This document shows positions 1,632-63,766 of a stretch of 64,000 nucleotides of DNA, one piece after another. Each line of letters begins with the position of its first letter. Position 1 is the stretch's first letter. The DNA comes from Felixounavirus LF110P2: sequence record OZ035782.1. One strand, 5' to 3'. Under the pieces are notes generated by a model. The model saw nothing but the letters and a program-made list of their open reading frames with translations, was not told the DNA's origin and searched no databases. The position numbers and the translations under genes are program-made.

Positions 1632-1647
1632 TAGCTAGGTGAGAAGA

Positions 1648-3114: not shown

Positions 3115-3614
3115 TGGCTGAAGTTATCTCTATTTCAAATGCTACACGGGTGCATTCGTATAGAGGTGTTCTTATCATCACTGACAAGTTATCTGTAGAG
3201 GCTGGCTCAAGGGTCAGCCTTTCAGGTTATGTAAGTGATGGTGGAGCCTCTGACGTTTTCACTATTTGTAGGTTACTTGATGCACCAATGAGTGGAAAAC
3301 CGTTTATTTCAGGAAATTGTAGTGAAATTGTTAAAATTCCATTTGACAGTTCATGCCTTTTGGGTGTAAAGTTATATAACTGCGAGAATAAACGTATCAA
3401 TGTTAATAGCATTGAAGCCGCTTTCATTACCCTCGACACTGCATTTCAATCTCCAATGACAGTTAATAAAGAAACAAACAGACTTGAATACATTTTTTCA
3501 CAAAATGATTACAAAGTACTTGTCAAAGGCAAAGTATATGATATGATTGTAAATGTGGTAGATGAATCTGGTAACCATTCAACAGTCCTTAAACAAAAAG
3601 TAAGGTTTAATTAA
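3114..3614 (+). CDS. Hypothetical head-module protein
   Basis: Intact ORF with ATG overlapping portal stop; function not recognisable. Confidence 0.3.
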   Translation: MAEVISISNATRVHSYRGVLIITDKLSVEAGSRVSLSGYVSDGGASDVFTICRLLDAPMSGKPFISGNCSEIVKIPFDSSCLLGVKLYNCENKRINVNSIEAAFITLDTAFQSPMTVNKETNRLEYIFSQNDYKVLVKGKVYDMIVNVVDESGNHSTVLKQKVRFN

Positions 3615-3946
3615 TGGGAACATTAACTATTGATGGTAAGAATAAAATCCTCGCCACGCTAACCCCAACGACTATTATTTTACACAATGTAGACCCAACG
3701 GCAGACCCTACAGCAAATAAGGTTACTCAGCCAGTGGCTATTTATTTTTCTGAACCGGATAATGGCTTAATTGCCTCAGAAGATACAGTTAATATTACTG
3801 TTCCAGCTTCTGCAACGGTCTCACACTATAGCTTGTGGGATGCTAACGATAAATGCGTGGCAACTGGTGCTCTTAGCAAACCTCAATTCTTTGCTGAAGA
3901 AGGTACCTATGTTATCTCTTCAGTCTCTGTAGATTTAAACAAATAG
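3614..3946 (+). CDS. Hypothetical head-module protein
   Basis: Intact ORF, start overlaps upstream stop (TAATG); function unknown. Confidence 0.3.
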   Translation: MGTLTIDGKNKILATLTPTTIILHNVDPTADPTANKVTQPVAIYFSEPDNGLIASEDTVNITVPASATVSHYSLWDANDKCVATGALSKPQFFAEEGTYVISSVSVDLNK

Positions 3947-3957
3947 GGTGAGTAAAA

Positions 3958-5304
3958 ATGAGTTCGAATATCTTCAGACTTGCTGATAGATTATTCAACC
4001 AACCTTTACTAGCCACTGAATCATTAGCTCACTCAGCAGCAACTTATGTGAATAACAGATTGCTGGGTGATGTCCAAGCAGCAGTAAACTTTGATAAACC
4101 CAAAGGTGAAGCAAGAAGTCTTTTAAAAGTAAAAGATGACATTGCTATTATTCCTATTATGGGTGGTTTAACCCATCGTATGACATTCATTGATGCAATG
4201 TGTACAGGTGGATTAAGCTCTTATGAAGGTTTGCGTAGAGGCTTTGACGAAGCTTTAGCAGATGAGTCAATCAAGACTATTGTTCTGCACATCGATTCTG
4301 GTGGTGGTGAAGCTTCAGGTTGCTTTGAATTAGCACGTCACATTATGGCTTCAAGAGGCCAAAAGAAAATTATTGCTTATGTAGATGAGTTCGCTTGTTC
4401 CGCTGCATACGCTCTTGCATCTTCTGCTGAAGAAATTATTGCATCACCAGATGCAGATGTTGGTTCTATTGGTGTAATTATGGTTCATCAGGAATTAACT
4501 AAGGCATTTGAAAAGAATGGCGTAACAATTAACGTCATCAAAGCTGGTGAGTTTAAAGGTATGGGTTCACCATTCCAAGCACTCTCAGAAGAAAGCAAAG
4601 AAAGACTTCAAAAGAGAATTAATGATACCTACGCAACCTTTACAGGTTTTGTAGCCGAATCCCGTAATCTCTCTGAAGAAGCTGTAAAGAATACTGAGGC
4701 GAATGTTTATTCTGCTCAGGAAGCTCTTGAACTTGGTTTAATTAACTCAATCATGTCTCAAGATGATTTCTTAAATTACTTACAAGGTTCTGAAGAGGCT
4801 CCTGTAAGTTTAAACGTTAACAATTCAGGTGAAGAAATGACTGAACAAGAAAAGCAAGAACTAGAAGCTTTGCGTCTTCAGGTTGCTCAAATGAAAGCTA
4901 AAGAACAGGAAGCTGCTTTGTCAGATTTGACTAATAAGATTTCTGCTTCTGCTGAAGCTTTTGGATTTGATGCAAAAGAAGCTGCAACGACTATTTTAGG
5001 TGCTGGTCTTGATAACCCTCTGAGTGTTCTGTTTATGAATGCTATGGAAGGTGCTAACCAGAAACTTAATGAAACTATCGCGTCCCATGCTTCTGCAATG
5101 GAAGAAAAAGAATCAGAAATTACCAAGCTGAAAGAAACTGCTGGTGCTGTTCTTGAACATTCCAACGCTATGGAAGAAATGGGTAATGACGGCGAAGCTG
5201 ATTTGGTTGAAGAAGAAAAAGAACCAGCTAAGAATGCTTCCGAAGACACCGCTGAACAACGCAAACTGGCTCTCCAGAATGCTCTAAAATCTCTTATCAA
5301 ATAA
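3958..5304 (+). CDS. Prohead protease (S49/SppA-ClpP-like) fused to scaffold-like Ala/Glu-rich C-terminal region
   Basis: N-terminal half carries S49-type serine protease signatures (IPIMGGL..., HIDSGGGEASG, DEFACSAAYALA, GSIGV); C-terminal 150 aa is low-complexity Ala/Glu/Lys-rich helical sequence; located between portal and capsid. Confidence 0.6.
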   Translation: MSSNIFRLADRLFNQPLLATESLAHSAATYVNNRLLGDVQAAVNFDKPKGEARSLLKVKDDIAIIPIMGGLTHRMTFIDAMCTGGLSSYEGLRRGFDEALADESIKTIVLHIDSGGGEASGCFELARHIMASRGQKKIIAYVDEFACSAAYALASSAEEIIASPDADVGSIGVIMVHQELTKAFEKNGVTINVIKAGEFKGMGSPFQALSEESKERLQKRINDTYATFTGFVAESRNLSEEAVKNTEANVYSAQEALELGLINSIMSQDDFLNYLQGSEEAPVSLNVNNSGEEMTEQEKQELEALRLQVAQMKAKEQEAALSDLTNKISASAEAFGFDAKEAATTILGAGLDNPLSVLFMNAMEGANQKLNETIASHASAMEEKESEITKLKETAGAVLEHSNAMEEMGNDGEADLVEEEKEPAKNASEDTAEQRKLALQNALKSLIK

Positions 5305-5315
5305 GGAACACAATA

Positions 5316-5693
5316 ATGGCATATCAAGGTTTTACTAAGTTAGGTAACAGAGAACCTCTGAATGATATCATTCTTTGGGAACAGATTACCCCAACAGGTC
5401 ACTCTCGTAAAGAGTACACTCCAGTTGCTTCAACAGAATACCGTGTAGGTGAAGTTCTGAAAGCAGACGGTACTAAAGTTGCAGCAGGGGAAGAAGCTCA
5501 GGCTGACTCTGTATGTATCGTTAACTTCTACGCAGACTCACAACTGTCTTATCATGGTCAGTTGAAAGTGGTAGGCATCTACCGCGATGCAGAACTGAAA
5601 GACATGCTTACTCTTGAAGCAAGTGTTAATGCTGATAGTGTTAAGGCAGCTCTGGCTGCTAAAGGTATTGATTTCGTACCAACTGGCCTGTAA
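5316..5693 (+). CDS. Putative head decoration protein
   Basis: 125 aa ORF immediately upstream of major capsid gene; position and size only. Confidence 0.3.
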   Translation: MAYQGFTKLGNREPLNDIILWEQITPTGHSRKEYTPVASTEYRVGEVLKADGTKVAAGEEAQADSVCIVNFYADSQLSYHGQLKVVGIYRDAELKDMLTLEASVNADSVKAALAAKGIDFVPTGL

Positions 5694-5726
5694 TAACAAT
5701 AATAAGACATTCTGGAGAATTTTACA

Positions 5727-6833
5727 ATGTTGACTAATTCTGAAAAAAGCAGATTTTTCCTTGCTGACCTGACTGGTGAAGTCCAGTCTATCCCAAATAC
5801 TTATGGGTATATTTCCAACTTAGGTCTGTTCCGTTCAGCACCAATCACCCAAACTACTTTCCTTATGGACTTGACTGATTGGGATGTTAGCTTGCTTGAT
5901 GCGGTAGACCGTGATAGCCGTAAAGCAGAGACTAGCGCACCTGAGCGTGTTCGTCAAATCAGCTTCCCAATGATGTACTTCAAAGAAGTTGAAAGCATTA
6001 CTCCTGATGAAATTCAGGGTGTACGTCAGCCAGGCACTGCAAACGAACTAACTACTGAAGCTGTAGTACGTGCTAAGAAGCTGATGAAGATTCGTACCAA
6101 GTTCGATATTACTCGTGAGTTCCTGTTTATGCAAGCTCTGAAGGGTAAAGTTGTTGATGCTCGTGGTACTCTGTATGCTGACCTGTACAAGCAGTTCGAC
6201 GTTGAGAAGAAGACTGTTTACTTCGACCTTGACAACCCTAATGCTGACATCGACGCTTCTATTGAAGAACTGCGTATGCACATGGAAGACGAAGCTAAGA
6301 CTGGCACTGTAATCAACGGTGAAGAAATTCACGTAGTTGTTGACCGCTTATTCTTCAGCAAACTGGTTAAACACCCTAAGATTCGTGACGCTTATCTTGC
6401 ACAGCAGACTCCGCTGGCTTGGCAACAGATTACTGGTTCTCTGAGAACTGGTGGTACTGACGGCGTTCAGGCTCACATGAACACTTTCTACTACGGTGGT
6501 GTTAAGTTTGTCCAGTACAACGGTAAGTTCAAAGACAAGCGTGGTAAGGTTCACACTCTGGTGAGTATTGATAGTGTAGCAGCAACTGTTGGTGTAGGTC
6601 ATGCTTTCCCTAACGTTTCTATGCTGGGTGAAGCAAACAACATCTTCGAAGTGGCATATGGTCCATGTCCTAAGATGGGTTATGCAAATACACTTGGTCA
6701 GGAACTGTACGTATTCGAATACGAAAAAGACCGTGACGAAGGTATTGACTTTGAAGCTCACTCTTACATGCTGCCATACTGCACACGTCCTCAGTTGCTG
6801 GTAGACGTTCGTTCTGACGCTAAACCAGACTAA
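5727..6833 (+). CDS. Major capsid protein
   Basis: 368 aa ORF following protease and decoration genes with good RBS; position and size typical of HK97-fold capsid protein; no motif independently verified. Confidence 0.55.
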   Translation: MLTNSEKSRFFLADLTGEVQSIPNTYGYISNLGLFRSAPITQTTFLMDLTDWDVSLLDAVDRDSRKAETSAPERVRQISFPMMYFKEVESITPDEIQGVRQPGTANELTTEAVVRAKKLMKIRTKFDITREFLFMQALKGKVVDARGTLYADLYKQFDVEKKTVYFDLDNPNADIDASIEELRMHMEDEAKTGTVINGEEIHVVVDRLFFSKLVKHPKIRDAYLAQQTPLAWQQITGSLRTGGTDGVQAHMNTFYYGGVKFVQYNGKFKDKRGKVHTLVSIDSVAATVGVGHAFPNVSMLGEANNIFEVAYGPCPKMGYANTLGQELYVFEYEKDRDEGIDFEAHSYMLPYCTRPQLLVDVRSDAKPD

Positions 6834-6854
6834 TATTCTTAAGGAGGGTTATGA

Positions 6855-7304
6855 ATGTGCTATACAGGCGACCCAGCCAATAACCCTCTTGATAGAGTAA
6901 GAATCCTCTGCACAGACACCAATAATGATGAAATTCTTATTGAACAGTCTGTGCTAGAGTGGTTCTATCTAGAATCTGGAAAGGATGAAAAGAAAGCAGC
7001 CATCAAAGCTCTTAAATATTTACTCTTTCAAGTAGCCAAGATGGGAGATGAGAAGGTTGGTGGTGTTTATTTACGTAACTCTTCCAGATTCAAGTCTCTG
7101 AAAGCTGTTTATGACGACCTTGTTAAAAGCTCTGTTTCAGGACTACCCTATGCAGGTGGTATTAATCAGTGTGATATTGACATGCGTCGTCAAAATCCTT
7201 GCTCTGTCAAGAAATACACAGAATATGGTGATGCTGCCAGATACGAAGGCAGAGATTACTGCAACCGTGTTAATGGCGTATTTATTATCGAGCGAGATGA
7301 ATAA
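6855..7304 (+). CDS. Head-tail connector / neck protein (putative)
   Basis: ORF with strong RBS AAGGAGGG; position between capsid and sheath. Confidence 0.3.
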   Translation: MCYTGDPANNPLDRVRILCTDTNNDEILIEQSVLEWFYLESGKDEKKAAIKALKYLLFQVAKMGDEKVGGVYLRNSSRFKSLKAVYDDLVKSSVSGLPYAGGINQCDIDMRRQNPCSVKKYTEYGDAARYEGRDYCNRVNGVFIIERDE

Positions 7305-7786
7305 TGGTTAAAAGGGTTATTCACCCCGCTAGAGCAAAATTAGTCGGGGCTATGAAGAACTTGCAAACGGCTAATGCTCAAGTTGGGTATTTTCAAGAAC
7401 AAGGTCAACATAGCTCTGGTTTTTCTTATCCTGCTTTAATGTATTTACAAGAAGTTATTGGGGTTCCTTCAGCTTCTGGTAAAGTATATCGTAGGTTGTT
7501 TGAAATCACTATTATGCTAAACAAACAGACCTTGTTAGAGCAGACTAAGAAGAATCTATATAAGCAACTTAGCAGTCTCAACACAGACCCTTCAAATACC
7601 TTAGAAGCATTTGCAAAGAATACTCAAAAGGTAATTAAAAGGGGGTTTGGTAATTCTGCTATCCTCCCTCCTAACGCACCTTCCACAGTCAAGAAAAAAG
7701 GCTTTAATGCACCTCTTGTTGAGACAGGTGACTTAAGAGATAACCTTGCTTATAAAATTTCTACTAAGAAGGGTATTAAGAAATGA
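7304..7786 (+). CDS. Neck / head completion protein (putative)
   Basis: Translationally coupled ORF in head-tail joining region. Confidence 0.3.
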   Translation: MVKRVIHPARAKLVGAMKNLQTANAQVGYFQEQGQHSSGFSYPALMYLQEVIGVPSASGKVYRRLFEITIMLNKQTLLEQTKKNLYKQLSSLNTDPSNTLEAFAKNTQKVIKRGFGNSAILPPNAPSTVKKKGFNAPLVETGDLRDNLAYKISTKKGIKK

Positions 7787-8184
7787 GACTCTTAAACAGA
7801 CACAGCTTTGTAGTAAAGCGTAAAGTCTCTGAAGATGGTTATTATAATGATGATGGTGATTGGGTAGCTTCACAAGATATTGTAGAGGTTAACTGCAAAG
7901 GTAATATCCAGCCATATATCAAAGGTTCTGTAAAGAATGGTACACAGATTGCTTTACCGGAAGGTATTAGGCTTACCGATACAAGAATCCTGTATACCAC
8001 ATATAAACTTAGAACTTCAGATGATGTAGAGTGGAATGAGTCTGATATTGTTATGATTGATGGTCATGAGTATGAAGTATTTATGACTATGGATTGGTCA
8101 CAGCAATTAGCCCATACGTCCCATTATGAATATATCATTATTAGAAGGGATAAAATGAATGCAGTTAGAAACAGCAGAACTTGA
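7783..8184 (+). CDS. Neck / tail completion protein (putative)
   Basis: Overlapping (ATGA) start with upstream gene; position. Confidence 0.3.
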   Translation: MRLLNRHSFVVKRKVSEDGYYNDDGDWVASQDIVEVNCKGNIQPYIKGSVKNGTQIALPEGIRLTDTRILYTTYKLRTSDDVEWNESDIVMIDGHEYEVFMTMDWSQQLAHTSHYEYIIIRRDKMNAVRNSRT

Positions 8185-8758
8185 AAAAGGTCTAGTTAGA
8201 ACCTTAGTGGATGTTATTGGTCACAGATTAGCTCGTGATAAAAATAATAGGCCAAACGTAATTAGGGCTTACCCTTCTGATAACTCAAATGACAAAGGTT
8301 TAAAACCTGACCAGCCATTTATCACCGTATATTGTCAGGATGCTGCAACACCTTATGGTTGGGTTCTTGATAAGTTTGTTGAGGATGATGTAGTTTGCTA
8401 CAGAATTGCTTTTCAGATTCCAGTATTAATTACGGTGAATGGTAAAGGTGCTCACAGTATTATGCTTGAGCTTAAACAACGATTAGAGATGAGTTCAGTC
8501 AGAGATTTAATCCTTGAAGAAACAGGAGCTACAGTACTGGACACTGGAGCAATCCCAAATGATTACACTTATCTCAATACAGATTTCGAAAATTCTGCAC
8601 CTCTTGTTGTAACTCTTGTAAAAAACTCAGTCCTGAAAGATGAACGTGGAAGTATTATTGAGCGTGTCATTGTTGATGGTGAGTTAGTTTATGAAGAAGG
8701 ACAAGAGCCACCAGAATATATTATCCATCTAGATGTAGACTCCAAAGGGGTAAAATAA
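8159..8758 (+). CDS. Tail completion / sheath stabiliser (putative)
   Basis: ORF immediately upstream of sheath gene. Confidence 0.3.
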   Translation: MQLETAELEKGLVRTLVDVIGHRLARDKNNRPNVIRAYPSDNSNDKGLKPDQPFITVYCQDAATPYGWVLDKFVEDDVVCYRIAFQIPVLITVNGKGAHSIMLELKQRLEMSSVRDLILEETGATVLDTGAIPNDYTYLNTDFENSAPLVVTLVKNSVLKDERGSIIERVIVDGELVYEEGQEPPEYIIHLDVDSKGVK

Positions 8759-10111
8759 ATGTGGAATCCAATTGTTAATGTAGATATTACATTGAACACC
8801 GCAGGAACTACAAGAGAAGGTTTTGGTTTGCCACTATTCTTAGCTTCAACAGATAATTTTGAAGAAAGAGTACGTGGTTACACTTCCTTAACTGAAGTTG
8901 CTGAAGATTTCGATGAGAATACTGCTGCATATAAGGCTGCTAAACAACTTTGGAGTCAGACTCCTAAAGTAACTCAGCTTTATATTGGTAGACGTGCTAT
9001 GCAGTACACTGTATCAATTCCTAATGCCGTTGCTGAAAGTACAGACTACTCAATTACTGTAGCTGCTGGCGGTGGAATTTCTCAACCATATCAGTATACA
9101 GCACAAGCTGAAGACACTGCTGAAAACGTGTTGCAACAGTTTAAAACACAGATTGAAGCTGACCCAACAATCAAAGATAAGGTTTCTGTGAACGTAACTG
9201 GTAGCAATGGCTCTGCCACAATGATTATTACCAAAGCTGGTGATAATGACTTTGTGAAAGTAACAACTACAGCACAGACTGTGTATATTGCAAGTACAAC
9301 TGCCGATACAGCATCAACTGCTCTGGCAGCTATCGAAGCTTACTCTACTGACTGGTATTTCATTGCAGCAGAAGACAGAACTCAACAGTTTGTCTTAGCA
9401 ATGGCTTCTGAGATTCAGGCTCGCAAGAAAATCTTCTTTACAGCTAACTCCGATGTAACAGCCCTGCAAGGTACAGAATTAGCCAGTGCAAATGATGTTC
9501 CAGCACAGCTTGCTAAGAATATGTACACTCATACAGTTTGCTTGTGGCATCACGCAGCGGCAGAAGACTATCCAGAGATGGCATACATTGCTTATGGTGC
9601 TCCATATGATGCAGGTTCAATTGCTTGGGGTAATGCTCAGCTAACTGGTGTAGCAGCTTCTCTACAACCATCTAATCAGAGACCTCTGACAAGTATTCAG
9701 AAGTCTGCTTTAGATGTACGTCACTGTAACTTTATTGACCTTGATGGTGGTGTTCCAGTGGTTCGTAGAGGGATTACTTCTGGTGGGGAATGGATTGATA
9801 TCGTCCGTGGCGTTGACTGGTTAGAATCAGACCTGAAAACTTCTCTGAGAGACTTGCTAATTAATCAGAAGGGTGGTAAGATTACTTATGATGATACTGG
9901 TATTACCCGTATTCGTCAAGTCATTGAAACCTCTCTGCAAAGAGCAGTCAACAGAAACTTCCTGTCATCTTACACAGTTAATGTTCCTAAAGCCTCTCAA
10001 GTTGCTTTGGCAGACAAGAAAGCTCGTATCCTGAAAGATGTTACCTTCGCAGGTATCTTAGCAGGGGCTATCTTGGATGTTGACTTGAAAGGTACAGTGG
10101 CTTACGAATAA
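8759..10111 (+). CDS. Tail sheath protein
   Basis: 450 aa ORF followed directly by a 148 aa ORF (tube) and a strong terminator, the canonical sheath-tube pair of contractile tails. Confidence 0.5.
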   Translation: MWNPIVNVDITLNTAGTTREGFGLPLFLASTDNFEERVRGYTSLTEVAEDFDENTAAYKAAKQLWSQTPKVTQLYIGRRAMQYTVSIPNAVAESTDYSITVAAGGGISQPYQYTAQAEDTAENVLQQFKTQIEADPTIKDKVSVNVTGSNGSATMIITKAGDNDFVKVTTTAQTVYIASTTADTASTALAAIEAYSTDWYFIAAEDRTQQFVLAMASEIQARKKIFFTANSDVTALQGTELASANDVPAQLAKNMYTHTVCLWHHAAAEDYPEMAYIAYGAPYDAGSIAWGNAQLTGVAASLQPSNQRPLTSIQKSALDVRHCNFIDLDGGVPVVRRGITSGGEWIDIVRGVDWLESDLKTSLRDLLINQKGGKITYDDTGITRIRQVIETSLQRAVNRNFLSSYTVNVPKASQVALADKKARILKDVTFAGILAGAILDVDLKGTVAYE

Positions 10112-10126
10112 TAGAGGTAAATTGGA

Positions 10127-10573
10127 ATGGCTATGTATCAGCAATATTCCCCTAAAGACGTTGTATGTAGCTGGAATGGTATTGCCATTGAAGGCTTTGC
10201 CCCAGATTCATTCTTGCGTCTACAGAGAACATCACCACTTGTGACACCAGTTGTTGGTGCAGGTGGTCAGGTTGCTCTGACAAGAAATGCAGACAAGACA
10301 GGTACTATTGAGATTGAGTTAATGCAGACTTCTCTCTCTAACCAGATGCTCTCTGCAATTCAAGCTAAACAAGACAATATGGAACTTGAAGAAGATATCT
10401 CTTCTAACTTCGTAATCTACGACCCATCAGGCTCTGTTCTGGCAACTGGTATTAATGCTTGGTTGCAGGAATTACCACAGATTGAACTTGGTCGTGACCA
10501 GAACTCTAAAACTTGGATTTTTGGTTGTGAGAAGCTAGACTACACTTCTACAATTCCAGCGTCAAGTGTTTAA
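10127..10573 (+). CDS. Tail tube protein
   Basis: 148 aa ORF after sheath; followed by intrinsic terminator. Confidence 0.5.
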   Translation: MAMYQQYSPKDVVCSWNGIAIEGFAPDSFLRLQRTSPLVTPVVGAGGQVALTRNADKTGTIEIELMQTSLSNQMLSAIQAKQDNMELEEDISSNFVIYDPSGSVLATGINAWLQELPQIELGRDQNSKTWIFGCEKLDYTSTIPASSV

Positions 10574-10585
10574 TAAATCCTATAA

Positions 10586-10617
10586 GGGGGAGACTTTAAA
10601 AGGTCTTCCCCTTTTTT
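10586..10617 (+). terminator. Rho-independent terminator after sheath/tube genes
   Basis: GGGGGAGAC ... GTCTTCCCC inverted repeat followed by TTTTTT. Confidence 0.6.
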
Positions 10618-10646
10618 GTTTCTTTTAAAAGTATTAAGGAATCACA

Positions 10647-11045
10647 ATGAAAACAGAATCTAGAGTAATTAATGGCAAGAAAGTAAATATCGTTCTGCTT
10701 GGGGCAAGAGATGGTATTAAGATGTCTATGAAGTTGGGTAAAATTGTTGTTCCAACTTTTGCACAGATGCTGTCAAGTCTGACTGACAAGGGTAAGAAAG
10801 AAGCTCCAATGGTTCCATTTAAAGAACTTGTTGAAGCTTGTTTTGACAGAATTGAAGAAATTAACCTTGAAGAGATGGCTACCTTATTATTTCAAGGGGC
10901 AACTGTTGACGACTTCCCACTTAATATTGATACGTACTTCCAAGCAAACTACGGTGAATTTATTGATTACTTAGCATTTGCGCTGGAGGCAAACTTCGGA
11001 AGTTTTTTCGAAGCAAGCATTTTCAAAAGCCTAACTTCTCAGTAA
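10647..11045 (+). CDS. Tail assembly chaperone (G-like)
   Basis: Small ORF immediately upstream of tape measure gene; ends just after a T_TTT_TTC slippery heptamer. Confidence 0.5.
   Translation: MKTESRVINGKKVNIVLLGARDGIKMSMKLGKIVVPTFAQMLSSLTDKGKKEAPMVPFKELVEACFDRIEEINLEEMATLLFQGATVDDFPLNIDTYFQANYGEFIDYLAFALEANFGSFFEASIFKSLTSQ
11003..11009 (+). other. Candidate -1 programmed ribosomal frameshift site (T_TTT_TTC) of the tail chaperone pair
   Basis: Heptamer TTTTTTC lies in X_XXY_YYZ register of ORF 10647..11045 (codons AGT TTT TTC); the -1 frame from 11009 is open and in frame with ORF 11048..11287. Confidence 0.5.
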
Positions 11046-11047
11046 AC

Positions 11048-11286
11048 ATGGGTAACACTCTACAGACACCACTAACTGATGCTGCTGTAGAGGCAACCTA
11101 TGAAGAAGCAGACGAGATGAAATTTGTGCTTGCTATTTATGGTATGGAAGGGTGTAAAGAAACACTTGACCAACTCTTTGCTATGACATTCTCTGATTTA
11201 TTATCATTGAGACAATTTCTTGAAATTCAGAGGTCGTATAAAGAGGAAATTGCTTACAACGAACTTAGAAGAGCAGGAAAAATGTA

Positions 11287-11287
<1 letters not shown>
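11048..11287 (+). CDS. Tail assembly chaperone frameshift extension (GT-like) or small independent ORF
   Basis: 79 aa ORF in -1 frame relative to upstream chaperone, contiguous with it, directly before tape measure gene. Confidence 0.4.
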
Positions 11288-19303
<8,016 letters not shown>

Positions 19304-24509: not shown

Positions 24510-25055
24510 TCAAAAGTGCCCTTTTACTTGTGGAACATAAATCTCAAAGGTTGCTTTACCATCATCTGAGGGTCTTGACTGTACCTTTGCAAATACATGG
24601 CTATCATACAGTTTATCGAAGAAGTTTTCAAAAGGTAAATACACAGTGGCCTCTTCAGTAACTTTATGGAAAACTGTATGGAAAACTACACCAGCATACG
24701 GCAAAGCATTGACAAGAACACCTGCACCACCAATTACAAAGATATCTTCATCAATAGAGCTATCAAGGTACTTCAAAAATGCTCCAAAGGACTCTTTGCT
24801 GGCCTTAGCATACATTACATCTTCTTTACCAAAGTCTATACCAAAATATGGCACAGAGTTTGTTAAGATAAGGTTTTCACGTTCTGGTAAAGGCTTACTA
24901 CCCAGAGTCTTAAAAGTCTCATTACCCATCACTACTAAGTTATTTTTAGTGAGTCTCTTAAACTCTTGCATGTCCTGTTTATGTCGAGGCCACGGCATAC
25001 CAGTTGGAGTACCAAACTCACCATTTTCACCACTTGCAAAGATTAATTTAATCAT
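24510..25055 (-). CDS. Dihydrofolate reductase
   Basis: N-terminal IFASGENGEFG...MPWP... pattern and 181 aa size are typical of DHFR; adjacent to thyA. Confidence 0.7.
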   Translation of the reverse strand: MIKLIFASGENGEFGTPTGMPWPRHKQDMQEFKRLTKNNLVVMGNETFKTLGSKPLPERENLILTNSVPYFGIDFGKEDVMYAKASKESFGAFLKYLDSSIDEDIFVIGGAGVLVNALPYAGVVFHTVFHKVTEEATVYLPFENFFDKLYDSHVFAKVQSRPSDDGKATFEIYVPQVKGHF

Positions 25056-25312
25056 TTTGTAAATCCTTTCTTAATGAACCAGTTGATAACACTCTTCACA
25101 ACTTTACTACGATGGTAGATAAAATGTGGAGAGGGTTGGTATGAACCATAAGCCCAGAAAGCGATAATTTCATTACACCCTGTGCATCGGGTACTTTCTT
25201 CAGCAATATGACCGTTGACTATTTCACTTACCTCACCTTGTAAGTCTGTACACCCGCAATGTGGACAACGGATAGGTGTTCCATCAGACTCATAGCAGTG
25301 TTCAATTTTCAT
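25052..25312 (-). CDS. Small zinc-ribbon protein
   Basis: CPHCGC ... CTGC cysteine pairs; start overlaps the DHFR gene. Confidence 0.3.
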   Translation of the reverse strand: MKIEHCYESDGTPIRCPHCGCTDLQGEVSEIVNGHIAEESTRCTGCNEIIAFWAYGSYQPSPHFIYHRSKVVKSVINWFIKKGFTK

Positions 25313-25841: not shown

Positions 25842-26201
25842 TTATGGGAACAAGCACTTAATGTCGTCGTTTTTGAAAACAAAGCTTGTGTAGTTATGAC
25901 CGTCAACATCCAGCCAAACAGCCTGAACATCTACACCATCAAGATTCTGGTAAAGCTCTTTGATGAAGTGGTCTTTCACAATCTGACTGCTAGTTGTTTC
26001 CAGCTTAATGTTCGAGATTGCTGAACCTACAGCCATATAGCCCATGACACGTTTCTTCTCAGTATGCTTAATCTTACCATCTTTGTAAGCCATAATGAGA
26101 TTGGAAAGAATCTTCACACCATAATACTTCTCAAGGTGAGTAGGTACACCATAAAAGCCTAATGCGAAGTTTTCAGAGTGGATAATGTTTTCACGTTTCA
26201 T
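25842..26201 (-). CDS. Hypothetical protein
   Basis: Intact 119 aa ORF in operon context. Confidence 0.3.
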   Translation of the reverse strand: MKRENIIHSENFALGFYGVPTHLEKYYGVKILSNLIMAYKDGKIKHTEKKRVMGYMAVGSAISNIKLETTSSQIVKDHFIKELYQNLDGVDVQAVWLDVDGHNYTSFVFKNDDIKCLFP

Positions 26202-26202
26202 A

Positions 26203-26502
26203 TTAATCTGCCAACCTTAAATTGAAATTAACACCAAATTTTTCACATACTTCCAACATATACTCAAGGGAGACGTTACCAGTGAGATGGATTATGTTGG
26301 ATACACGAGCCTGAGAGATACCACAAATTTTAGCAACTTGCTCTTGAGAAAGACCTCTGGATTTAATCTCTCTCTTAAAACGATGTGCAACGAAGTCTCT
26401 CATTTCGTCTACATCCATTGGGCAAATATAACTTTCCATTTCAGCCTCTCTATCAGCCTCCCAATCATCTTGTGGGGCATAAGGGTCAAAAACCTCATTC
26501 AT
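26203..26502 (-). CDS. Helix-turn-helix (XRE-like) DNA-binding protein with acidic N-terminal extension
   Basis: LSQEQVAKICGISQARVSNI is a canonical HTH; N-terminal 40 aa is D/E-rich. Start set at internal ATG (MNEVF...). Confidence 0.5.
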   Translation of the reverse strand: MNEVFDPYAPQDDWEADREAEMESYICPMDVDEMRDFVAHRFKREIKSRGLSQEQVAKICGISQARVSNIIHLTGNVSLEYMLEVCEKFGVNFNLRLAD

Positions 26503-26708: not shown

Positions 26709-27092
26709 TCAAATACCTGTGCAGCTTCTGTTTTCTAAGAAATACTCAACACCGTACATAGCTTTTTGCATCAAATCTTCTTTAAACTGGATACGATGAT
26801 TGAGCATATCCTGTACATCAATATTATCATGGTGTTTCTCTTTAATATTTGCAGATTGCAGGAAATACTCTGCAAGAACGCGATATTGATAGTCAGTCAC
26901 CTTATCAGTCATCTCTGTCAAAGACTCTTCAGAGATTGGTTTTAGTAACTCACCATTAGCTAGAGCAACACCTTTTACAATCTGGCAAGTATCTTCTGGA
27001 ACACCTGACAAGTCCACATTTGGGAGTTCTGTTGCATTGACTGGTAAATTCATTGCCATAACCATTGCAGCAGCTAATAAAATCTTTTTCAT
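26709..27092 (-). CDS. Secreted/periplasmic protein (signal peptide)
   Basis: N-terminus MKKILLAAAMVMAMNLPVNA is a Sec-type signal peptide; first gene after the long non-coding leader. Confidence 0.4.
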   Translation of the reverse strand: MKKILLAAAMVMAMNLPVNATELPNVDLSGVPEDTCQIVKGVALANGELLKPISEESLTEMTDKVTDYQYRVLAEYFLQSANIKEKHHDNIDVQDMLNHRIQFKEDLMQKAMYGVEYFLENRSCTGI

Positions 27093-27137
27093 AATGACCT
27101 CAAAGTTATATTGAATTTTGTATTACATTGAGTATAA

Positions 27138-27184
27138 AAATAAGCTATAACACCTGACTTGTCAACAGATTTTATAGCTTATTT
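27138..27184. promoter_or_regulatory. 13-bp perfect inverted repeat (operator-like) flanking a TTGACA element
   Basis: AAATAAGCTATAA (27138-27150) and TTATAGCTTATTT (27172-27184) are exact reverse complements, separated by 21 nt containing TTGACA on the - strand. Confidence 0.45.
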
Positions 27185-27300
27185 GGCAGATTTTTTATAA
27201 GGCTACTGCCATCCTTCCATACATTACCTAACCAAGCCTAACATCACACAACCAGACCGAGCCGCACCCCGCCTTTTTAAAAGACCCTCTTAAAGACCTT

Positions 27301-27465
27301 TTAAAAAGGTAAGTCTCATTTTAATGTAGCTGAGACTAACTACCCACACCTTACCAAACCGTACCTGACCTTACCATGCCACACCTTACAACACCAAACA
27401 TTACTTAAAAACCTTCTTAGAAGACTCTTAAGTGATGCTGGTGAGTACCCGTTGGTTTATGCTGC
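27301..27465 (-). ncRNA. Candidate small non-coding RNA / structured leader (G+U-rich transcript)
   Basis: Defined only by a - strand promoter at 27468-27495 and a - strand terminator-like hairpin plus U-tract at 27301-27345; no ORF; + strand almost devoid of G. Confidence 0.15.
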
Positions 27466-27467
27466 TC

Positions 27468-27495
27468 AGTATACTCACCAAATTTTCTATGTCAA
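27468..27495 (-). promoter_or_regulatory. Sigma70-like promoter candidate on - strand (TTGACA-N16-TATACT)
   Basis: Reverse complement of 27468-27495 reads TTGACA, 16-nt spacer, TATACT. Confidence 0.35.
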
Positions 27496-27502
27496 CAACT
27501 TT

Positions 27503-28606
27503 TTATTCGTAGTCTCGAATAACTAACCCGACAGGGAACTGTAGAGACCCCTTACGAGTCATCTTCTGGAACTGAACCGTTAAAGGCTTCCCGATAAACT
27601 CTTCAGGATGCTCAGCAAGATACTGTTTCTTCTCATGAGTAGTCTTCCATGAGACATCTACAAAGACGTTAGGAAGAGTCTCTACAACGAACTTGCCATG
27701 ACCACGCTTATCAGTCTTTACACCAGTCACTTTAAACTCTTCAGTGTGCATCTTCTTGTGCTTAATCAAGAAATATGAACGGTGACCACACTCGTAGAAA
27801 GATTCTTCAGAGATTGAACGGTACATTGCACCTTCAAAATCAGCTTCAACCCATTTATCATGAGCTTCATCAAACTCTTCCCAAGAGTTAACACGACGAG
27901 ACTTGACAGGGACAACTCTACAGCCGTCTCTAAAGTCATTCAATGGTGAAGTCTCAATAATATCCCTACGCTCAGGCCACGTCTTAGTGCTGTCACAGAT
28001 ATCATACCAGTAAAACTTGAGTAAATGTCGGTCAGGATTGTCTTCATTTTTAATCATAGAGACAATATCTTCTAAGTCCAACCCATGAGCATAGATTTCA
28101 CCATCAAATTCATCAACATCTTTATGGAGCCTCAACATTGCCATAATGTCAGGTATTAGCTCAGTAGGAATTTTATAAATAGTGTTCTCACGAGAATATG
28201 CTGTAAATACGCTGCCAATACTTAAGTGTCTTGAAATTCTACAACGGACACCATCAAGTTTTGGTTGAGCATCAGCAGGGAACTTCAGATACTTTGCATG
28301 ACTAACCTTTGCAGCATCATGAGCAAGCTGCACACCTACCTTCTCAGTATTCTGTGCAGACTCTTTTGTGTAAGCATAGCCTTTGCGGTCAACCTGCTTT
28401 TTATACTTAGCAGCAACTTCAAAGAGAGCTTGCTGTTCAGCGTTACGCTCATTCTTTTTACCGATGTTTTTAGGTTCTGCTGTATACTCTTCAAACATCA
28501 TCTTGCCATTTTCTTTACCGTAGGTTGTAATAACTTTGTCACCTACAGCAACGCATGACCAGACGTTGAAAGAGCCGTCTTTATTTTGTTTGTACAGTAT
28601 TGTCAT
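27503..28606 (-). CDS. ATP-dependent DNA ligase
   Basis: Adenylation motif KLDGVRC (KxDGxR), then DGEIYAHG, EGAMYRS and FLIKHKK in the order of ligase motifs I, III, IV, V. Start set at ATG preceded by AGAGGA RBS. Confidence 0.6.
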   Translation of the reverse strand: MTILYKQNKDGSFNVWSCVAVGDKVITTYGKENGKMMFEEYTAEPKNIGKKNERNAEQQALFEVAAKYKKQVDRKGYAYTKESAQNTEKVGVQLAHDAAKVSHAKYLKFPADAQPKLDGVRCRISRHLSIGSVFTAYSRENTIYKIPTELIPDIMAMLRLHKDVDEFDGEIYAHGLDLEDIVSMIKNEDNPDRHLLKFYWYDICDSTKTWPERRDIIETSPLNDFRDGCRVVPVKSRRVNSWEEFDEAHDKWVEADFEGAMYRSISEESFYECGHRSYFLIKHKKMHTEEFKVTGVKTDKRGHGKFVVETLPNVFVDVSWKTTHEKKQYLAEHPEEFIGKPLTVQFQKMTRKGSLQFPVGLVIRDYE

Positions 28607-28607
28607 T

Positions 28608-28799
28608 TTATTCCTCTGAGTGATACCAAGTATTGCAAGCATTACATGCGTAAAGCTCTAAGTCATTTTTGTCTGGTTTATGGAAACAGTTTGCTCCGCA
28701 GTGGCAACGAAACGGCTTTCCACCAACTGTCAGAATGAAGGATTGAACCTTTCCATCAGGAGTCCGTACAGCATTTTTATGCTTGTCTTCTTTATTCAT
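28608..28799 (-). CDS. Small zinc-ribbon protein
   Basis: CHCGANC ... CNACN cysteine/histidine pairs; 63 aa. Confidence 0.3.
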   Translation of the reverse strand: MNKEDKHKNAVRTPDGKVQSFILTVGGKPFRCHCGANCFHKPDKNDLELYACNACNTWYHSEE

Positions 28800-28955
28800 T
28801 TGTGCTATTGCCTTTGTCAGATTTCATATAGGACATGTTACTATACCTTTTAATAAAATGTACAACGCATTTTGGTGTATCCTTTGAGTCTTTGATGTGC
28901 AATCTCTCGAAACTGTGTACTGTGAAGGTTGCATCTGTCATTGTTTGCTTAGGTT

Positions 28956-29162
28956 TCATTTTCTCTTACCACCAATCTCTACGTCAATAACTTGAACATC
29001 ACCAGCAACATCAAACTTATGAATGATGCTTTCCACAGTGTAAGTCCAACCCTCGATTCGAACCAACTCACCTTCTCGTGGGACGATTGGGTTACGTTGA
29101 GCTACGGTTGTAGTGGAGTGAACAACATCATAACAGTATATATAGTTCACTAGGACTTCCAT
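28956..29162 (-). CDS. Hypothetical small protein
   Basis: 68 aa from internal ATG with GAGGTG RBS. Confidence 0.3.
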   Translation of the reverse strand: MEVLVNYIYCYDVVHSTTTVAQRNPIVPREGELVRIEGWTYTVESIIHKFDVAGDVQVIDVEIGGKRK

Positions 29163-30281: not shown

Positions 30282-32981
30282 TTAGTGAACCTCAAGCCAG
30301 CTTTTACCAACCTTACCAGTACCTGTAACAAGTGTTTCTTTCTTAAGACCTAAGTTCTTAGAAGCTTGTCCATAATACCAGTCAGTAACCGCTTTCACCT
30401 CTGCCGTCATGCTTTCTGGACATTCCCAACTCGTCTCATCGTGATATGCGCAGAGTAAACGAGCACCAATAGCTGGTTTGCGACCATTCAACTTCATCAA
30501 GCCTTCGTCAATCATACGACGACAAGCAAGGTTAATCGCCTCATTTTGAATCTGAGCCTCTGAACCCATCAAAAGATAGTTCAATAATTTGTGTGGAGAT
30601 TTACACCACAACCAAGCTCCAGCAACCTTTACAAAACCCCCTTTAGAGATTGCAGCAGTCTTACCAAACACCTCTTCAAGTGCCTTTTTAGTCGCTTTGT
30701 AGTCAGCTTCCAAGTCATCTAGCAGCTTCTTAATTTTAGGCAAACGAATAAAGTAAGTCTGTTTAGTCAGTGCACCTTCCTGAGTAGTTGCAGCCTTAAT
30801 TGTCTTAGCAAACTTCTCATCACCTGCACCGAACAGCAGTGCATAGATACCATTCTTAGCTTTCTTACGACCCTTACTAATCTCATGAAGAAGACTCTCA
30901 TCCTGAGTAGCTCGACAAGTCAAGATATCCTGCTCATCATTCAAGCTAAAGTAAATGCTGTTCAGTGTATGAGCATCAGTCCCTGAATAGACAACGTACA
31001 GGTCATTCTCAGAGTCATAGCGAAGGTACTTATCAATCTCTGGGTTGAGGTACTCATCAAAATGTTTGCAGTAATAGCGTCCATCCTCTTGACGAATAAA
31101 CTCAATCTCTTCTTTACCTTGCGTTACCGCTTTGGTGAAGTCTTTATCACCCATAAAGTTACAAAGAAGAACTAGCTGAGCTGAGTTCATATCTACAGAG
31201 ACAACGTTAGTACCTTCCTCACAAATCCACACTGCCCTCATTGGTTCCCCATAGACAGCAGCACCAGACGGTACGTTTACAATACCATATTGTGTCATAC
31301 GTCCAGTTGAAGTACCAAACACCATTGCACCAGCACTAAGGCGACCATCAGGACGAATCTGGTTCAACCAACCTTTTTCATCATCCTTTGAGTTCTCAAT
31401 AGTTCTGCGTCGGTGCATCAAAGTATAGTACTTAGCAATCTTCTGTCCAAGTTCACCTTCAATCGTATCATAAGATGACTCAGTAAGCTTTGGTGAAGTA
31501 CGGATTAAGCAAGGCTCAAGCAAATCTGTGTATTTTTTCACAGACCAGTTATGCTCAATGTACTGGACACCTTCATGTTCAACATAGTTCAAACCACACC
31601 GCTCAACCATTTCCTGCCACTTAGGATGTTTTGTAATCATCTTTTTATTGTCTTTGAAACGACAAACTTTAACAGGGCGACCATCTGAGTCTTTCTTGTA
31701 GTTCCAGTCATCTGGAATCCAACCAACTGATTTCAAGTAGTCTTTAACAACTGCTACCTGAGTCATACGAGAAACTTCAAACTCAATTGGTGTATACGGT
31801 GCATCAATCAAACCTGTGTAGCGACTTGACTCAAGTTCAAAGTGGTTAACAACATGACTGTTATAGTACTTCACAGTTTTAACTGTTTTTACTGGCTTCC
31901 AGTCTTTGCATTTCTTACCAATCTTTGCGTTCAACTCATTGCAAATTGCACGAGCATCCTTCATTGCTACAAAACCTTCTTTGTACTCTTCACCAGTTAC
32001 AGAGTTGGTTGGTGTATAGCAATTCCGCTTTTCAATGTTAAAAATCTTTGTAGTTGGCTTACCAAATGGCTTGATTTCATATGTCTGCATCTCACCGTTA
32101 CGTACCTGTTGACGATACTTTGTCTTAGGGTACTTGGTAATTCTCTTCAGTCCATCTGCATGACCAAATGCTTCAACATACTCATTCCAAGCTTTTGCAA
32201 ATTCTTCTCCAGTGACTTTACCTTTGGTCTTAATAGTTGGAGGAAGATGTGGTTCAACTTCTGAAGCAAGCTCATTAGTCAATTTGTCAAGTTCCTTTAC
32301 ATGGAACTCCATAAGCTCTTTATCAGCTTTCCAACCATTTATAGCCTGTTGACTCATCCAGAAAGATGTTTCTTTAGCTCGCATGTAGGTTTCATAAGTG
32401 TCTATGCCACACTTCTTCAGCTTGAGATATTCATTATCCAGTGCACGTTTAGTTTTGGCGTTAATACGGATATCTTCCACAACACGAGTGAAGATTTCTG
32501 CATTCCACACACCCCAATGTTCAATCTCTGGTTTACGTACACCAACACGCGCACCCCATGCAGCCAAGCCATGAGCACCTTTATAACCTTTTGGAGTTGG
32601 TCTATCCATCCACTGAACACGAGACTGGATAAGAGAATCCTGAAAGAAATTACTCCACGGCTTACACTTTGGATTATCAAAGTTCCATAAATCAGGTGCA
32701 ATGTGATTGAAAACCCACCAGTCATAACCGAGACCGTTATGGATGCAAAGACGTTTTGCCTTTAACGCAAACTCAATACCTTCGCGTAAGCCACCCTTAA
32801 TATACTTGGTATACTTGTGACCGAGTATAGGCTCATCTGTAAAGACCCATACAGGCGGCTCTTCATCGTCAGATTTATAGTCTGCGAAAGCCATTACGTG
32901 CACTTTAGTGAACTCAAGGAGTAAACCATCAGTTTCTGTATCACCAACTAAATGTAAGTTTTTAAAATCTACGTTTTCCAT
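30282..32981 (-). CDS. DNA polymerase, family A (Pol I-like) with 3'-5' exonuclease domain
   Basis: Exo I motif LVGDTETDGL near N-terminus; polymerase motif B-like RKKAKNGIYALLFGAG and motif C CAYHDE near C-terminus. Start set at MENVDFK preceded by GAGGGAG. Confidence 0.85.
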   Translation of the reverse strand: MENVDFKNLHLVGDTETDGLLLEFTKVHVMAFADYKSDDEEPPVWVFTDEPILGHKYTKYIKGGLREGIEFALKAKRLCIHNGLGYDWWVFNHIAPDLWNFDNPKCKPWSNFFQDSLIQSRVQWMDRPTPKGYKGAHGLAAWGARVGVRKPEIEHWGVWNAEIFTRVVEDIRINAKTKRALDNEYLKLKKCGIDTYETYMRAKETSFWMSQQAINGWKADKELMEFHVKELDKLTNELASEVEPHLPPTIKTKGKVTGEEFAKAWNEYVEAFGHADGLKRITKYPKTKYRQQVRNGEMQTYEIKPFGKPTTKIFNIEKRNCYTPTNSVTGEEYKEGFVAMKDARAICNELNAKIGKKCKDWKPVKTVKTVKYYNSHVVNHFELESSRYTGLIDAPYTPIEFEVSRMTQVAVVKDYLKSVGWIPDDWNYKKDSDGRPVKVCRFKDNKKMITKHPKWQEMVERCGLNYVEHEGVQYIEHNWSVKKYTDLLEPCLIRTSPKLTESSYDTIEGELGQKIAKYYTLMHRRRTIENSKDDEKGWLNQIRPDGRLSAGAMVFGTSTGRMTQYGIVNVPSGAAVYGEPMRAVWICEEGTNVVSVDMNSAQLVLLCNFMGDKDFTKAVTQGKEEIEFIRQEDGRYYCKHFDEYLNPEIDKYLRYDSENDLYVVYSGTDAHTLNSIYFSLNDEQDILTCRATQDESLLHEISKGRKKAKNGIYALLFGAGDEKFAKTIKAATTQEGALTKQTYFIRLPKIKKLLDDLEADYKATKKALEEVFGKTAAISKGGFVKVAGAWLWCKSPHKLLNYLLMGSEAQIQNEAINLACRRMIDEGLMKLNGRKPAIGARLLCAYHDETSWECPESMTAEVKAVTDWYYGQASKNLGLKKETLVTGTGKVGKSWLEVH

Positions 32982-33175
32982 TTTTACTCCCTCTAAAATC
33001 ATTAACCTCATACATTACTGCAAAAAATTATAAAAAGCAAGTTGACAATGCACTTGACAAGGTGTTAATCTTTGCGAAGTGGGTTTTTACTTAAAAGGTT
33101 ACTTAACAGCTTAACTATACAGATACTTTAAAACTCTTAAAAGATTATTTAATAGCTTTTAAAAAGCTTTAAAGT

Positions 33176-63493: not shown

Positions 63494-63685
63494 CATTTCA
63501 GAATTGTGCAGGTATATTTCTATAGAGAAATCTGTAGAGAAAATTTTGAACTCCAAAGAGAAAATTCATTTTCAAATTGTGCAGGTAATCTCCAAAGGGC
63601 TTTTTCATTTTCAAAACGTGCAGACCCCGCTCAGGTCGGGCAAGAAAAATCATTTTAGAATCGTGCAGGTAGGTTTTTATAGAGA
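63487..63685 (+). repeat. Cluster of four direct repeats, core TCATTTT(C)A(R)AA(T/C)(Y)GTGCAG(GTA)
   Basis: Copies at about 63494-63515, 63567-63589, 63604-63625 and 63649-63670; two are preceded by CTCCAAAG(A/G)G and two followed by TATAGAGA. Confidence 0.6.
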
Positions 63686-63766
63686 GCCAGACCAACCCCT
63701 CTCCCCCTCTTACTCCCCCTCAGATAAAGAGCTTTACCACTAAATCCTAAATTGGAGAACTTAAAA

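Follow-up and report, generated by a model that had tools for sequence, protein, structure and literature searches.

The window analysed here spans positions 1-64000 of the genome of the Felix O1-like phage Felixounavirus LF110P2 (OZ035782.1), whose whole record (the window plus sequence L027) is 87,144 bp long. Within it, a DNA ligase gene (27503-28642) and a 127-aa open reading frame (ORF; 26709-27092), both on the minus strand like all nearby genes, flank a 410-nt interval (27093-27502) that no ORF of at least 30 aa overlaps. The interval is best read, with a probability of roughly 0.88, as two tandem minus-strand vrRNA genes of a type II (SUSP1-clade) VIPR system, the guides of which fit a satellite of Escherichia coli. 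Both genes are orphans, because neither of the protein genes of such a system, vipr and vap, was found in LF110P2.

VIPR, a relative of CRISPR that is proposed to be older than it, is a form of RNA-guided DNA recognition with a noncontiguous code, and comprises a small RAMP protein (Vipr, a minimal, Cas7-like RAMP of ~20 kDa), an accessory protein (Vap) and vrRNAs (bioRxiv 10.64898/2026.04.26.720920, June 2026). In each vrRNA, 9-16 YNNGG repeats precede a tail that is invariant and, in the SUSP1 clade, pseudoknotted, and small RNA sequencing of SUSP1-infected cells recovered the vrRNAs as ~100-nt small RNAs that co-purify with Vipr (bioRxiv 10.64898/2026.04.26.720920). The NN dinucleotides read double-stranded DNA with one base skipped per unit, and binding leads to transcriptional repression. 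Natural targets are competing mobile elements, with no self-targeting, and most SUSP1-clade guides are aimed at a phage satellite that shares homology with SUSP1 structural genes (bioRxiv 10.64898/2026.04.26.720920).

In LF110P2, the minus strand of the interval carries two tracts of in-phase YNNGG pentamers, here termed arrays A and B, each followed by a structured tail (Table 1). The NN dinucleotides read TT GT AA GT AT AA CA AC TT AA GT in array A (guide A) and GG GC TC CT TG GA TA TT TA AA AT in array B (guide B), and three units of array B are degenerate. GGYNN arrays were absent from the rest of the window, and shuffling the window in blocks produced no array of at least five units (0/50) and none of at least seven units under relaxed rules (0/30). 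With repeats and tail combined, the predicted length of vrRNA-A is 96 nt. Rfam 15 gave no match in the window at gathering thresholds and, when searched to an E-value of 10, only chance-level matches in 27050-27560 (E = 5-6), and a tRNA and tmRNA search (ARAGORN) found none.

The interval also has the most negative GC skew of the 64-kb window (-0.67 at the 100-nt and -0.58 at the 200-nt scale). An initial annotation, made from the sequence alone, had called its plus strand almost G-free, which holds for the two arrays (for example, three G in the 57 nt of 27346-27402) but not for the full 410 nt, where 51 G stand against 103 C. The repeated ACCTTAC/CACACC units that it listed are real repeats in the wrong parse, the true unit being the pentamer GGYNN on the minus strand. 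It was correct that the interval is free of ORFs and that a minus-strand promoter-like element, a hairpin with a U-tract (27345-27303; -12.5 kcal/mol) and a perfect 13-bp inverted repeat around a second TTGACA are present. The discrete, G/U-rich minus-strand small RNA that it placed between the promoter (27495-27468) and this hairpin is supported, with ~100-nt small RNAs known from the homologous SUSP1 modules, and would correspond to vrRNA-A. It overlooked that there are two RNA genes instead of one, that they have a 5-nt period and that the variable bases are guide sequence. Five other stretches of the window have negative skews of -0.67 to -0.88 at the 60-nt scale (32955-33040, 63685-63755, 28953-29022, 26196-26268 and 25011-25071), none of which holds a GGYNN array.

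Table 1 Features of the interval between the DNA ligase gene and the 127-aa ORF of LF110P2, in minus-strand order.
Feature	Coordinates	Strand	Details
Promoter-like element P1	27468-27495	-	TTGACA-16-TATACT, 11/12 consensus positions; upstream of vrRNA-A; kept in all relatives read
Upstream element U-a	27397-27439	-	RNA folds at -14.6 kcal/mol (z = -4.8) into a long hairpin containing G.U pairs
vrRNA-A repeat tract	27344-27398	-	11 YNNGG units, in-phase pentamers
vrRNA-A 3' tail, variant V1	27312-27343	-	H-type pseudoknot; S1 GTAG/CTAC, S2 AGTCTCA/TGAGACT, A-rich loop
TACC + U5	27303-27311	-	Intrinsic-terminator-like 3' end of vrRNA-A; closes extended hairpin 27345-27308
Upstream element U-b	27277-27302	-	AAAAGGTCTTTAAGAGGGTCTTTTAA; precedes repeat tract B
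vrRNA-B repeat tract	27217-27276	-	12 units, first degenerate (11-12 counted); in-phase pentamers
vrRNA-B 3' tail, variant V4	27185-27216	-	Pseudoknot via compensatory changes; S1 AAGG/CCTT, S2 GGCAG/CTGCC
Perfect 13-bp inverted repeat, then U-run	27138-27184	-	Arms 27184-27172 and 27150-27138
Promoter-like element P2	27165-27160 (-35), 27142-27137 (-10)	-	-35 TTGACA in the palindrome loop; ahead of the downstream operon
Ribosome-binding region of the 127-aa ORF	27093-27101	-	GAGG; ORF starts at 27092

The architecture of the two genes recurs in related phages. The homologous region was compared in 26 Felixounavirus loci, which contain between one and five modules per genome, each built on one plan: U-a, a long hairpin, or U-b (AAAAGGTCTTTAAnnGGGTCTTTTAA) serves as the conserved element upstream, then come 11-20 pentamers and a conserved downstream element of ~32 nt. 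In these loci the GGY bases were retained (T/C 0.99, first G 0.81, second G 0.97), and across 803 units from the relatives their frequencies were at least 0.95 (Y), 0.76-0.81 (first G) and 0.92-0.97 (second G); the NN positions were near-free and differed wholly between phages that are otherwise ~90% identical. For any one combination of flanks, tract lengths differ by multiples of 5 nt (for example 61, 66, 71 ... 101 nt), with two exceptions among the modules read. In LF110P2, U-a lies directly 5' of repeat tract A, overlapping its first unit by 2 nt; it also precedes many arrays in relatives and is possibly a 5' processing signal. U-b, which occurs once in the window and never in shuffled sequence, is likewise kept 5' of arrays in the relatives. 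In phage ASO1A, where a single hybrid module remains, a site homologous to the TACC/U5 element bears the annotation of a rho-independent terminator.

The downstream element occurs in four variants, in all of which an H-type pseudoknot is maintained through compensatory changes, with stem S1 as GTAG/CTAC, GTGG/CCAC or AAGG/CCTT and stem S2 as AGTCTCA/TGAGACT, AATCGGA/TYCGATT, GGTAG/CTACC or GGCAG/CTGCC. Among 18 distinct tails, pairing was preserved in 94.4% of cells, compared with 28-38% when the partner was slid, and 9 of the 11 pseudoknot pairs showed compensatory changes on both sides, a result matched by 0/500 shuffles; the 18 tails fall into four related groups, so these counts reflect few independent covariation events. 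Covariation across related phages, which the initial annotation had suggested looking for, is thus seen in the pseudoknotted tail. The presence of G.U pairs assigns the functional RNA to the minus strand.

To search for targets, the structural module of phage wV8 was used as a query against 5,426 complete E. coli genomes, because the VIPR preprint describes the satellite as homologous to SUSP1 structural genes. Of the 5,426 genomes, 420 carry a chromosomal island whose DNA is 85-96% identical to the last part of the tape-measure gene and to the baseplate gene that follows it. Five variants of ~11 kb were read (L160 6145-17963, L161 ~2400-13400, L162 2341-13778, L163 861-12355 and L164 ~900-12385); they are inserted at mdtG, at yciI-tonB or at a DUF72 gene, with one small and one large serine recombinase gene at the borders of every copy. 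This island family, which uses at least these three integration sites, is probably the satellite of the VIPR preprint. When 63 unique Felixounavirus guides were scanned against the five variants, 33 reached an NN match of at least 80% with a skip of one base and none did so with a skip of zero, two or three, while unit-order shuffles gave three matches at exactly 0.80. All 33 target sites fall within the islands, and the published 1-nt skip rule is thereby reproduced independently.

Both LF110P2 guides have sites in these islands. Guide A matches at 21 of 22 positions (L161 7386-7417), which none of 400 shuffles equalled (null maximum 18), and its site is intergenic, with a satellite gene of 236 aa beginning ~125 bp further downstream. 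For guide B the match is 19 of 22 positions (L160 10274-10305), a score reached by 1/400 shuffles; the site spans the ribosome-binding site and the start codon of a gene of 96 aa and closely follows the promoter of that gene (TTGACA-N17-TAAGAT). A near-identical guide B from a vipr-carrying phage reaches 20/22 at the identical site. The two target regions are present in 346 (A) and 127 (B) of the 5,426 genomes. Guide A was found in no other record of the phage collection, whereas guide B recurs in ~10 other phages at 98-100% identity, the vipr-carrying phage adrianh among them. A self-target was not found in the LF110P2 genome (best 17/22, within the null). None of the 63 genus guides scored above the null on the wV8 or LF110P2 genomes, and the idea that orphan guides are aimed at vipr-carrying relatives was dropped because none of them beats the null on wV8. 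The 410-bp interval itself had no blastn match in the 5,426 E. coli genomes, and the five islands read contained no Vipr and no GGYNN array of at least six units. Immediately upstream of the guide A target (L161 7330-7385), the island carries a terminator-like hairpin and then TTTTTTAAGAGTTTTTAAACAGAGCTTTTAAAG, which resembles U-b of the phage (AAAAGGTCTTTAAACAGGGTCTTTTAA); perhaps the satellite copies the U elements as a regulatory signal specific to the phage.

Searching public collections for exact patterns turned up nothing beyond apparent chance matches. The guide A pattern over 10 units occurs in one marine metagenome-assembled genome and in one IMG/VR family of eight environmental viral contigs (L150 8649-8677 and seven homologous contigs), in a capsid-like 311-aa gene where the skip coincides with codon position 1. 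These matches were judged to be due to chance, given the position of the skipped base and contigs that look unrelated to enterobacterial phages. The guide B pattern had no match in IMG/VR at full length or over nine units, and the SUSP1 guide that served as the positive control of the exact-pattern scan also returned none.

In wV8, SUSP1, SUSP2 and many other relatives, two genes lie between the modules, corresponding to gp95 (195 aa) and gp94 (146 aa) of wV8. The gp95 product, which has a RAMP fold, 520 homologs at E <=0.001 and no Pfam family, is Vipr, and gp94 is Vap. Neither gene was found in the whole LF110P2 record by tblastn with the wV8 proteins (best E = 0.35 for gp95 and 0.88 for gp94), and a Vipr profile of 109 homologs gave a best E-value of 0.9 against the six-frame ORFs of LF110P2, compared with 5e-81 for the wV8 control. 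LF110P2 therefore lacks both proteins of a complete type II system. It is not alone in this respect: the phage collection holds 230-260 records with this intergenic sequence and 118 with Vipr at >=90% identity, so that roughly half of the genus is vipr-less.

The distribution of the two protein genes suggests a mobile cassette. Vap was present in all vipr-carrying loci at 99-100% identity, and the protein identity of Vipr and Vap was 97-100% in all but one of those read, while the adjacent ligases differ by up to 14%. This near-identity suggests recent spread or exchange of the cassette inside the genus. As the ligases nearest to that of the window also come from vipr-carrying phages (99.0, 98.6 and 98.4% identity), the vipr-vap cassette appears to have been gained and lost repeatedly, plausibly by recombination between the flanking modules.

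From these features, P1, a promoter of sigma-70 type, would drive transcription through U-a and array A to the tail and terminator hairpin (27345-27303), and vrRNA-B would end at the palindrome hairpin (27184-27138) and its U-run. In complete systems, according to the preprint, Vipr coats the repeats and holds the GGY bases, leaving NN to read double-stranded DNA with the skip. In LF110P2, the vrRNAs are probably made during infection; in a single infection they would be without a partner, and for any action they would depend on Vipr provided in trans when a relative infects the same cell. The cassette would have been lost from this phage, or never present in it, coming and going via module recombination.

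Several points weigh against this interpretation. The promoter, terminators and RNA ends of the LF110P2 vrRNAs are predictions, and the islands were equated with the satellite of the preprint through its description instead of accessions. The score of guide B (19/22, or 86%) is modestly above the null, and variants of its target in four more genomes match at 13-17 of 22 positions. The skipped bases lie off the codon wobble position at both targets (A is intergenic and B falls at codon position 2), whereas they are mostly at wobble in the preprint (bioRxiv 10.64898/2026.04.26.720920). The source paper for VIPR is itself a preprint, and vrRNAs have no known activity without Vipr, so the locus may be an inert relic.

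That last possibility accepts the identity of the vrRNA genes and concerns their present role. It holds that vipr and vap were recently deleted by recombination between modules and that the leftovers are neutral and decaying, with no role beyond that of promoter and terminator signals for the neighbouring operons; we regard this as a substantial possibility, though at less than even odds. The missing protein genes agree with it, as do the arrangement of the modules as direct repeats around the cassette in vipr-carrying relatives, the single hybrid module of ASO1A, the sharing of guide B with vipr-carrying phages and the degenerate units of array B, and the close ligases of vipr-carrying phages imply that a loss may be recent. 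Against decay, intact modules without Vipr occur in about half of the genus records, and each of the eight vipr-less loci read retains an intact P1 along with the two tails and the two upstream elements. The sampled orphan arrays retain the YNNGG code (perfect-unit fraction 0.71, versus 0.78 in vipr-carrying loci) and match satellites as often as the others do (7 of 14 guides on target versus 23 of 46), and guide A, although unique to LF110P2, fits the satellite almost perfectly. These observations allow a more speculative, somewhat unlikely proposal, namely that selection maintains guides without vipr and vap in about half of the Felixounaviruses because such guide-only phages load the nearly invariant Vipr of relatives in mixed infections; it is just as tentative that the guides instead use an effector so far unrecognised.

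The remaining explanations dispute that these are vrRNA genes at all. According to the initial annotation, the interval would encode an ordinary small RNA, acting by base pairing or as a protein sponge, next to a palindromic operator that serves the operon at 27092 and is bound by the product of a neighbouring gene (26203-26502). This neighbour is indeed a 99-aa Cro/CI-type helix-turn-helix protein (PF01381, HTH_3, E = 4.9e-10; no other Pfam match came from the ORFs around the interval, from Vipr or Vap, or from the target genes), and the promoter, hairpin with U-tract and repeat around TTGACA are all real. The conserved features are nevertheless vrRNA-like (5-nt period, hypervariable NN and pseudoknotted tail), and the NN bases match under a skip of one only, making this reading improbable. 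Nor does the palindrome demand an operator. It stands immediately 3' of the vrRNA-B tail, where that RNA is expected to end, and follows the V4 tail in all loci read; as RNA it folds into a hairpin of -17.8 kcal/mol (z = -5.1) followed by UUUUU, with the -35 element of P2 in its loop. A vrRNA-B terminator overlapping promoter P2 is on these grounds at least as likely as an operator. The arms are nearly invariant among relatives, so their conservation cannot separate a terminator hairpin from a protein-binding site, and a role as operator for the HTH_3 protein or for Vap is not established. The long structured 5' leader that was also proposed is not supported.

Very little speaks for a replication origin, another earlier suggestion, in which the G-rich transcript, by forming a G-quadruplex or an R-loop with the C-rich template, would prime DNA synthesis. 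The extreme excess of G over C in the non-template strand directly after a strong promoter, and the ligase, polymerase, frd and td genes nearby, would suit it, but cumulative GC skew has no turning point here, and R-loops and G-quadruplexes need G-richness, unlike the strict GGY phase with hypervariable, foreign-matching NN; modules also number from one to five and flank a RAMP gene. It is equally far-fetched that the repeats are a platform for some other multimeric factor, such as a TRAP-like ring, Rho at a rut site on the antisense RNA, or a terminase or terminal-repeat signal. The 5-nt period and ~11-12 units do recall TRAP sites, the plus strand is C-rich and G-poor across ~60 nt, and the record of one relative stops within an array. 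Yet the G.U pairs place the functional RNA on the minus strand, the known partner of such repeats is Vipr, and that record end resembles an assembly break. In UAB_Phi87, moreover, the terminal repeat lies ~30 kb away: an exact 542-bp repeat in the tRNA region stands at both record ends (L029 1-542 and L030 963-1504), while the homolog of the interval is at 57.8-58.5 kb, and a terminal repeat or pac site was accordingly rejected. The UAB_Phi87 paper gives a terminal repeat of 608 bp. TRAP-like ring sites, Rho rut sites, R-loop or G-quadruplex origins and GT-rich DNA of the kind preferred by RecA were all discarded as leaving the hypervariable, foreign-matching skip-1 NN unexplained. The same applies to a boxA-like sequence, GGUCUUUAA (8/9 to rrn boxA), for which a chance match in the interval is not unlikely.

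As vrRNA genes, the two LF110P2 modules most closely resemble those of SUSP1. They agree in position, lying after the DNA ligase gene and before the operon that follows, and share the YNNGG repeats (11-12 here), the upstream elements, the pseudoknotted tail variants, the skip-1 matches to satellite-like islands and the lack of self-targeting. The locus of phiSUSP1 (L015, 100% identity) has one module upstream and three downstream of the two protein genes and uses upstream elements and tails, V1 and V4 included, that are found in the LF110P2 window. LF110P2 differs in lacking vipr and vap and in having only two modules, where SUSP1 has four and the relatives read as many as five; its RNAs and their binding to Vipr are predicted, those of SUSP1 measured.

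Other known systems share parts of this arrangement. Orphan CRISPR arrays, including phage mini-arrays without cas genes, keep guide repeats with intact promoters and handles, and any activity would need an effector in trans. The LF110P2 locus is alike in that an intact guide locus lacks its cognate effector gene in the same genome; it is unlike them in its noncontiguous guide (two of every five nt) and in a partner that is a single small RAMP protein, and we know of no acquisition machinery for VIPR. TRAP sites in Bacillus trp leaders consist of 9-11 (G/U)AG triplets separated by 2-3-nt spacers and bind an 11-mer ring protein. With ~11 trinucleotide motifs, a ~5-nt period, free spacer bases and a repeated protein surface the two are similar, but the vrRNA motif is GGY, its spacers are informative in sequence and fit foreign DNA, a RAMP filament takes the place of the ring and there is no TRAP homolog. 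In T4-type phages, promoter/stem-loop cassettes (PeSLs) flank shuffled genes. The vrRNA modules are similarly repeated intergenic units around an accessory cassette that varies among close relatives, which fits module recombination; unlike PeSLs, they are themselves guide-RNA genes, beyond promoter and terminator units.

This kind of element has already been described (in the 2026 preprint), and LF110P2 provides a new, orphan member. The present analysis re-derives the main features of VIPR independently and by computation alone: the 5-nt code with its 1-nt skip rule, the pseudoknot of the tail, a RAMP protein as partner and satellites as targets. Intact, on-target vrRNA genes in phages without Vipr or Vap, in about half of a genus that is well sampled and has members employed in typing and biocontrol, apparently go beyond the main text of the preprint, in which the words 'orphan' and 'Felix' do not occur. 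If guide-only phages do exist, they could repress satellites without the cost of the proteins, or redirect or dilute the Vipr of a competitor. Orphan guides acting in trans would mean that VIPR guides and effector can be inherited separately, which would change models of phage-satellite and phage-phage conflict and would offer natural pairs of guide and target for tests. Should the guides be relics, the locus instead shows how fast a cassette can be lost through recombination between its own guide genes.

Arrays of this form are widespread, as scanning IMG/VR for uninterrupted runs of seven GGT-NN units returned at least ~120 contigs, with heterogeneous multi-module arrays in many unrelated phages. 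Long tandem sets with short fixed spacers occur in L126 (3233-4394; at least 18 modules, spacer ggcagttNN) and L050 (2217-3406; 12 modules), and further unrelated contigs with tandem GGYNN arrays include L040, L056, L039, L047, L119 and L133; these tandem sets presumably represent other VIPR types. The scan also picks up plain microsatellites, for example (GGTTA)n.

In the relatives humlepung, UAB_Phi87, ASO1A and garuso, an ORF for a hydrophobic product of 48 aa (MFSTVILFILVVFVLSYVASKLLDTSFAMGVLFTIFCFVTHIAIRTFL) separates the ligase gene from P1 (L001 2004-2150 and L002 2004-2150). It is missing from LF110P2, where the corresponding point lies between 27502 and 27503, and its absence accounts for most of the difference in spacer length. 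The record that stops inside a vrRNA repeat tract is that of phage warpig (L028 3001-3150), and the stop looks like an assembly break, not a physical end. Finally, records of Staphylococcus phage SA1 and Campylobacter phages A132/A126 contain the Felixounavirus region at 90-98% identity and are likely mislabelled or mixed.

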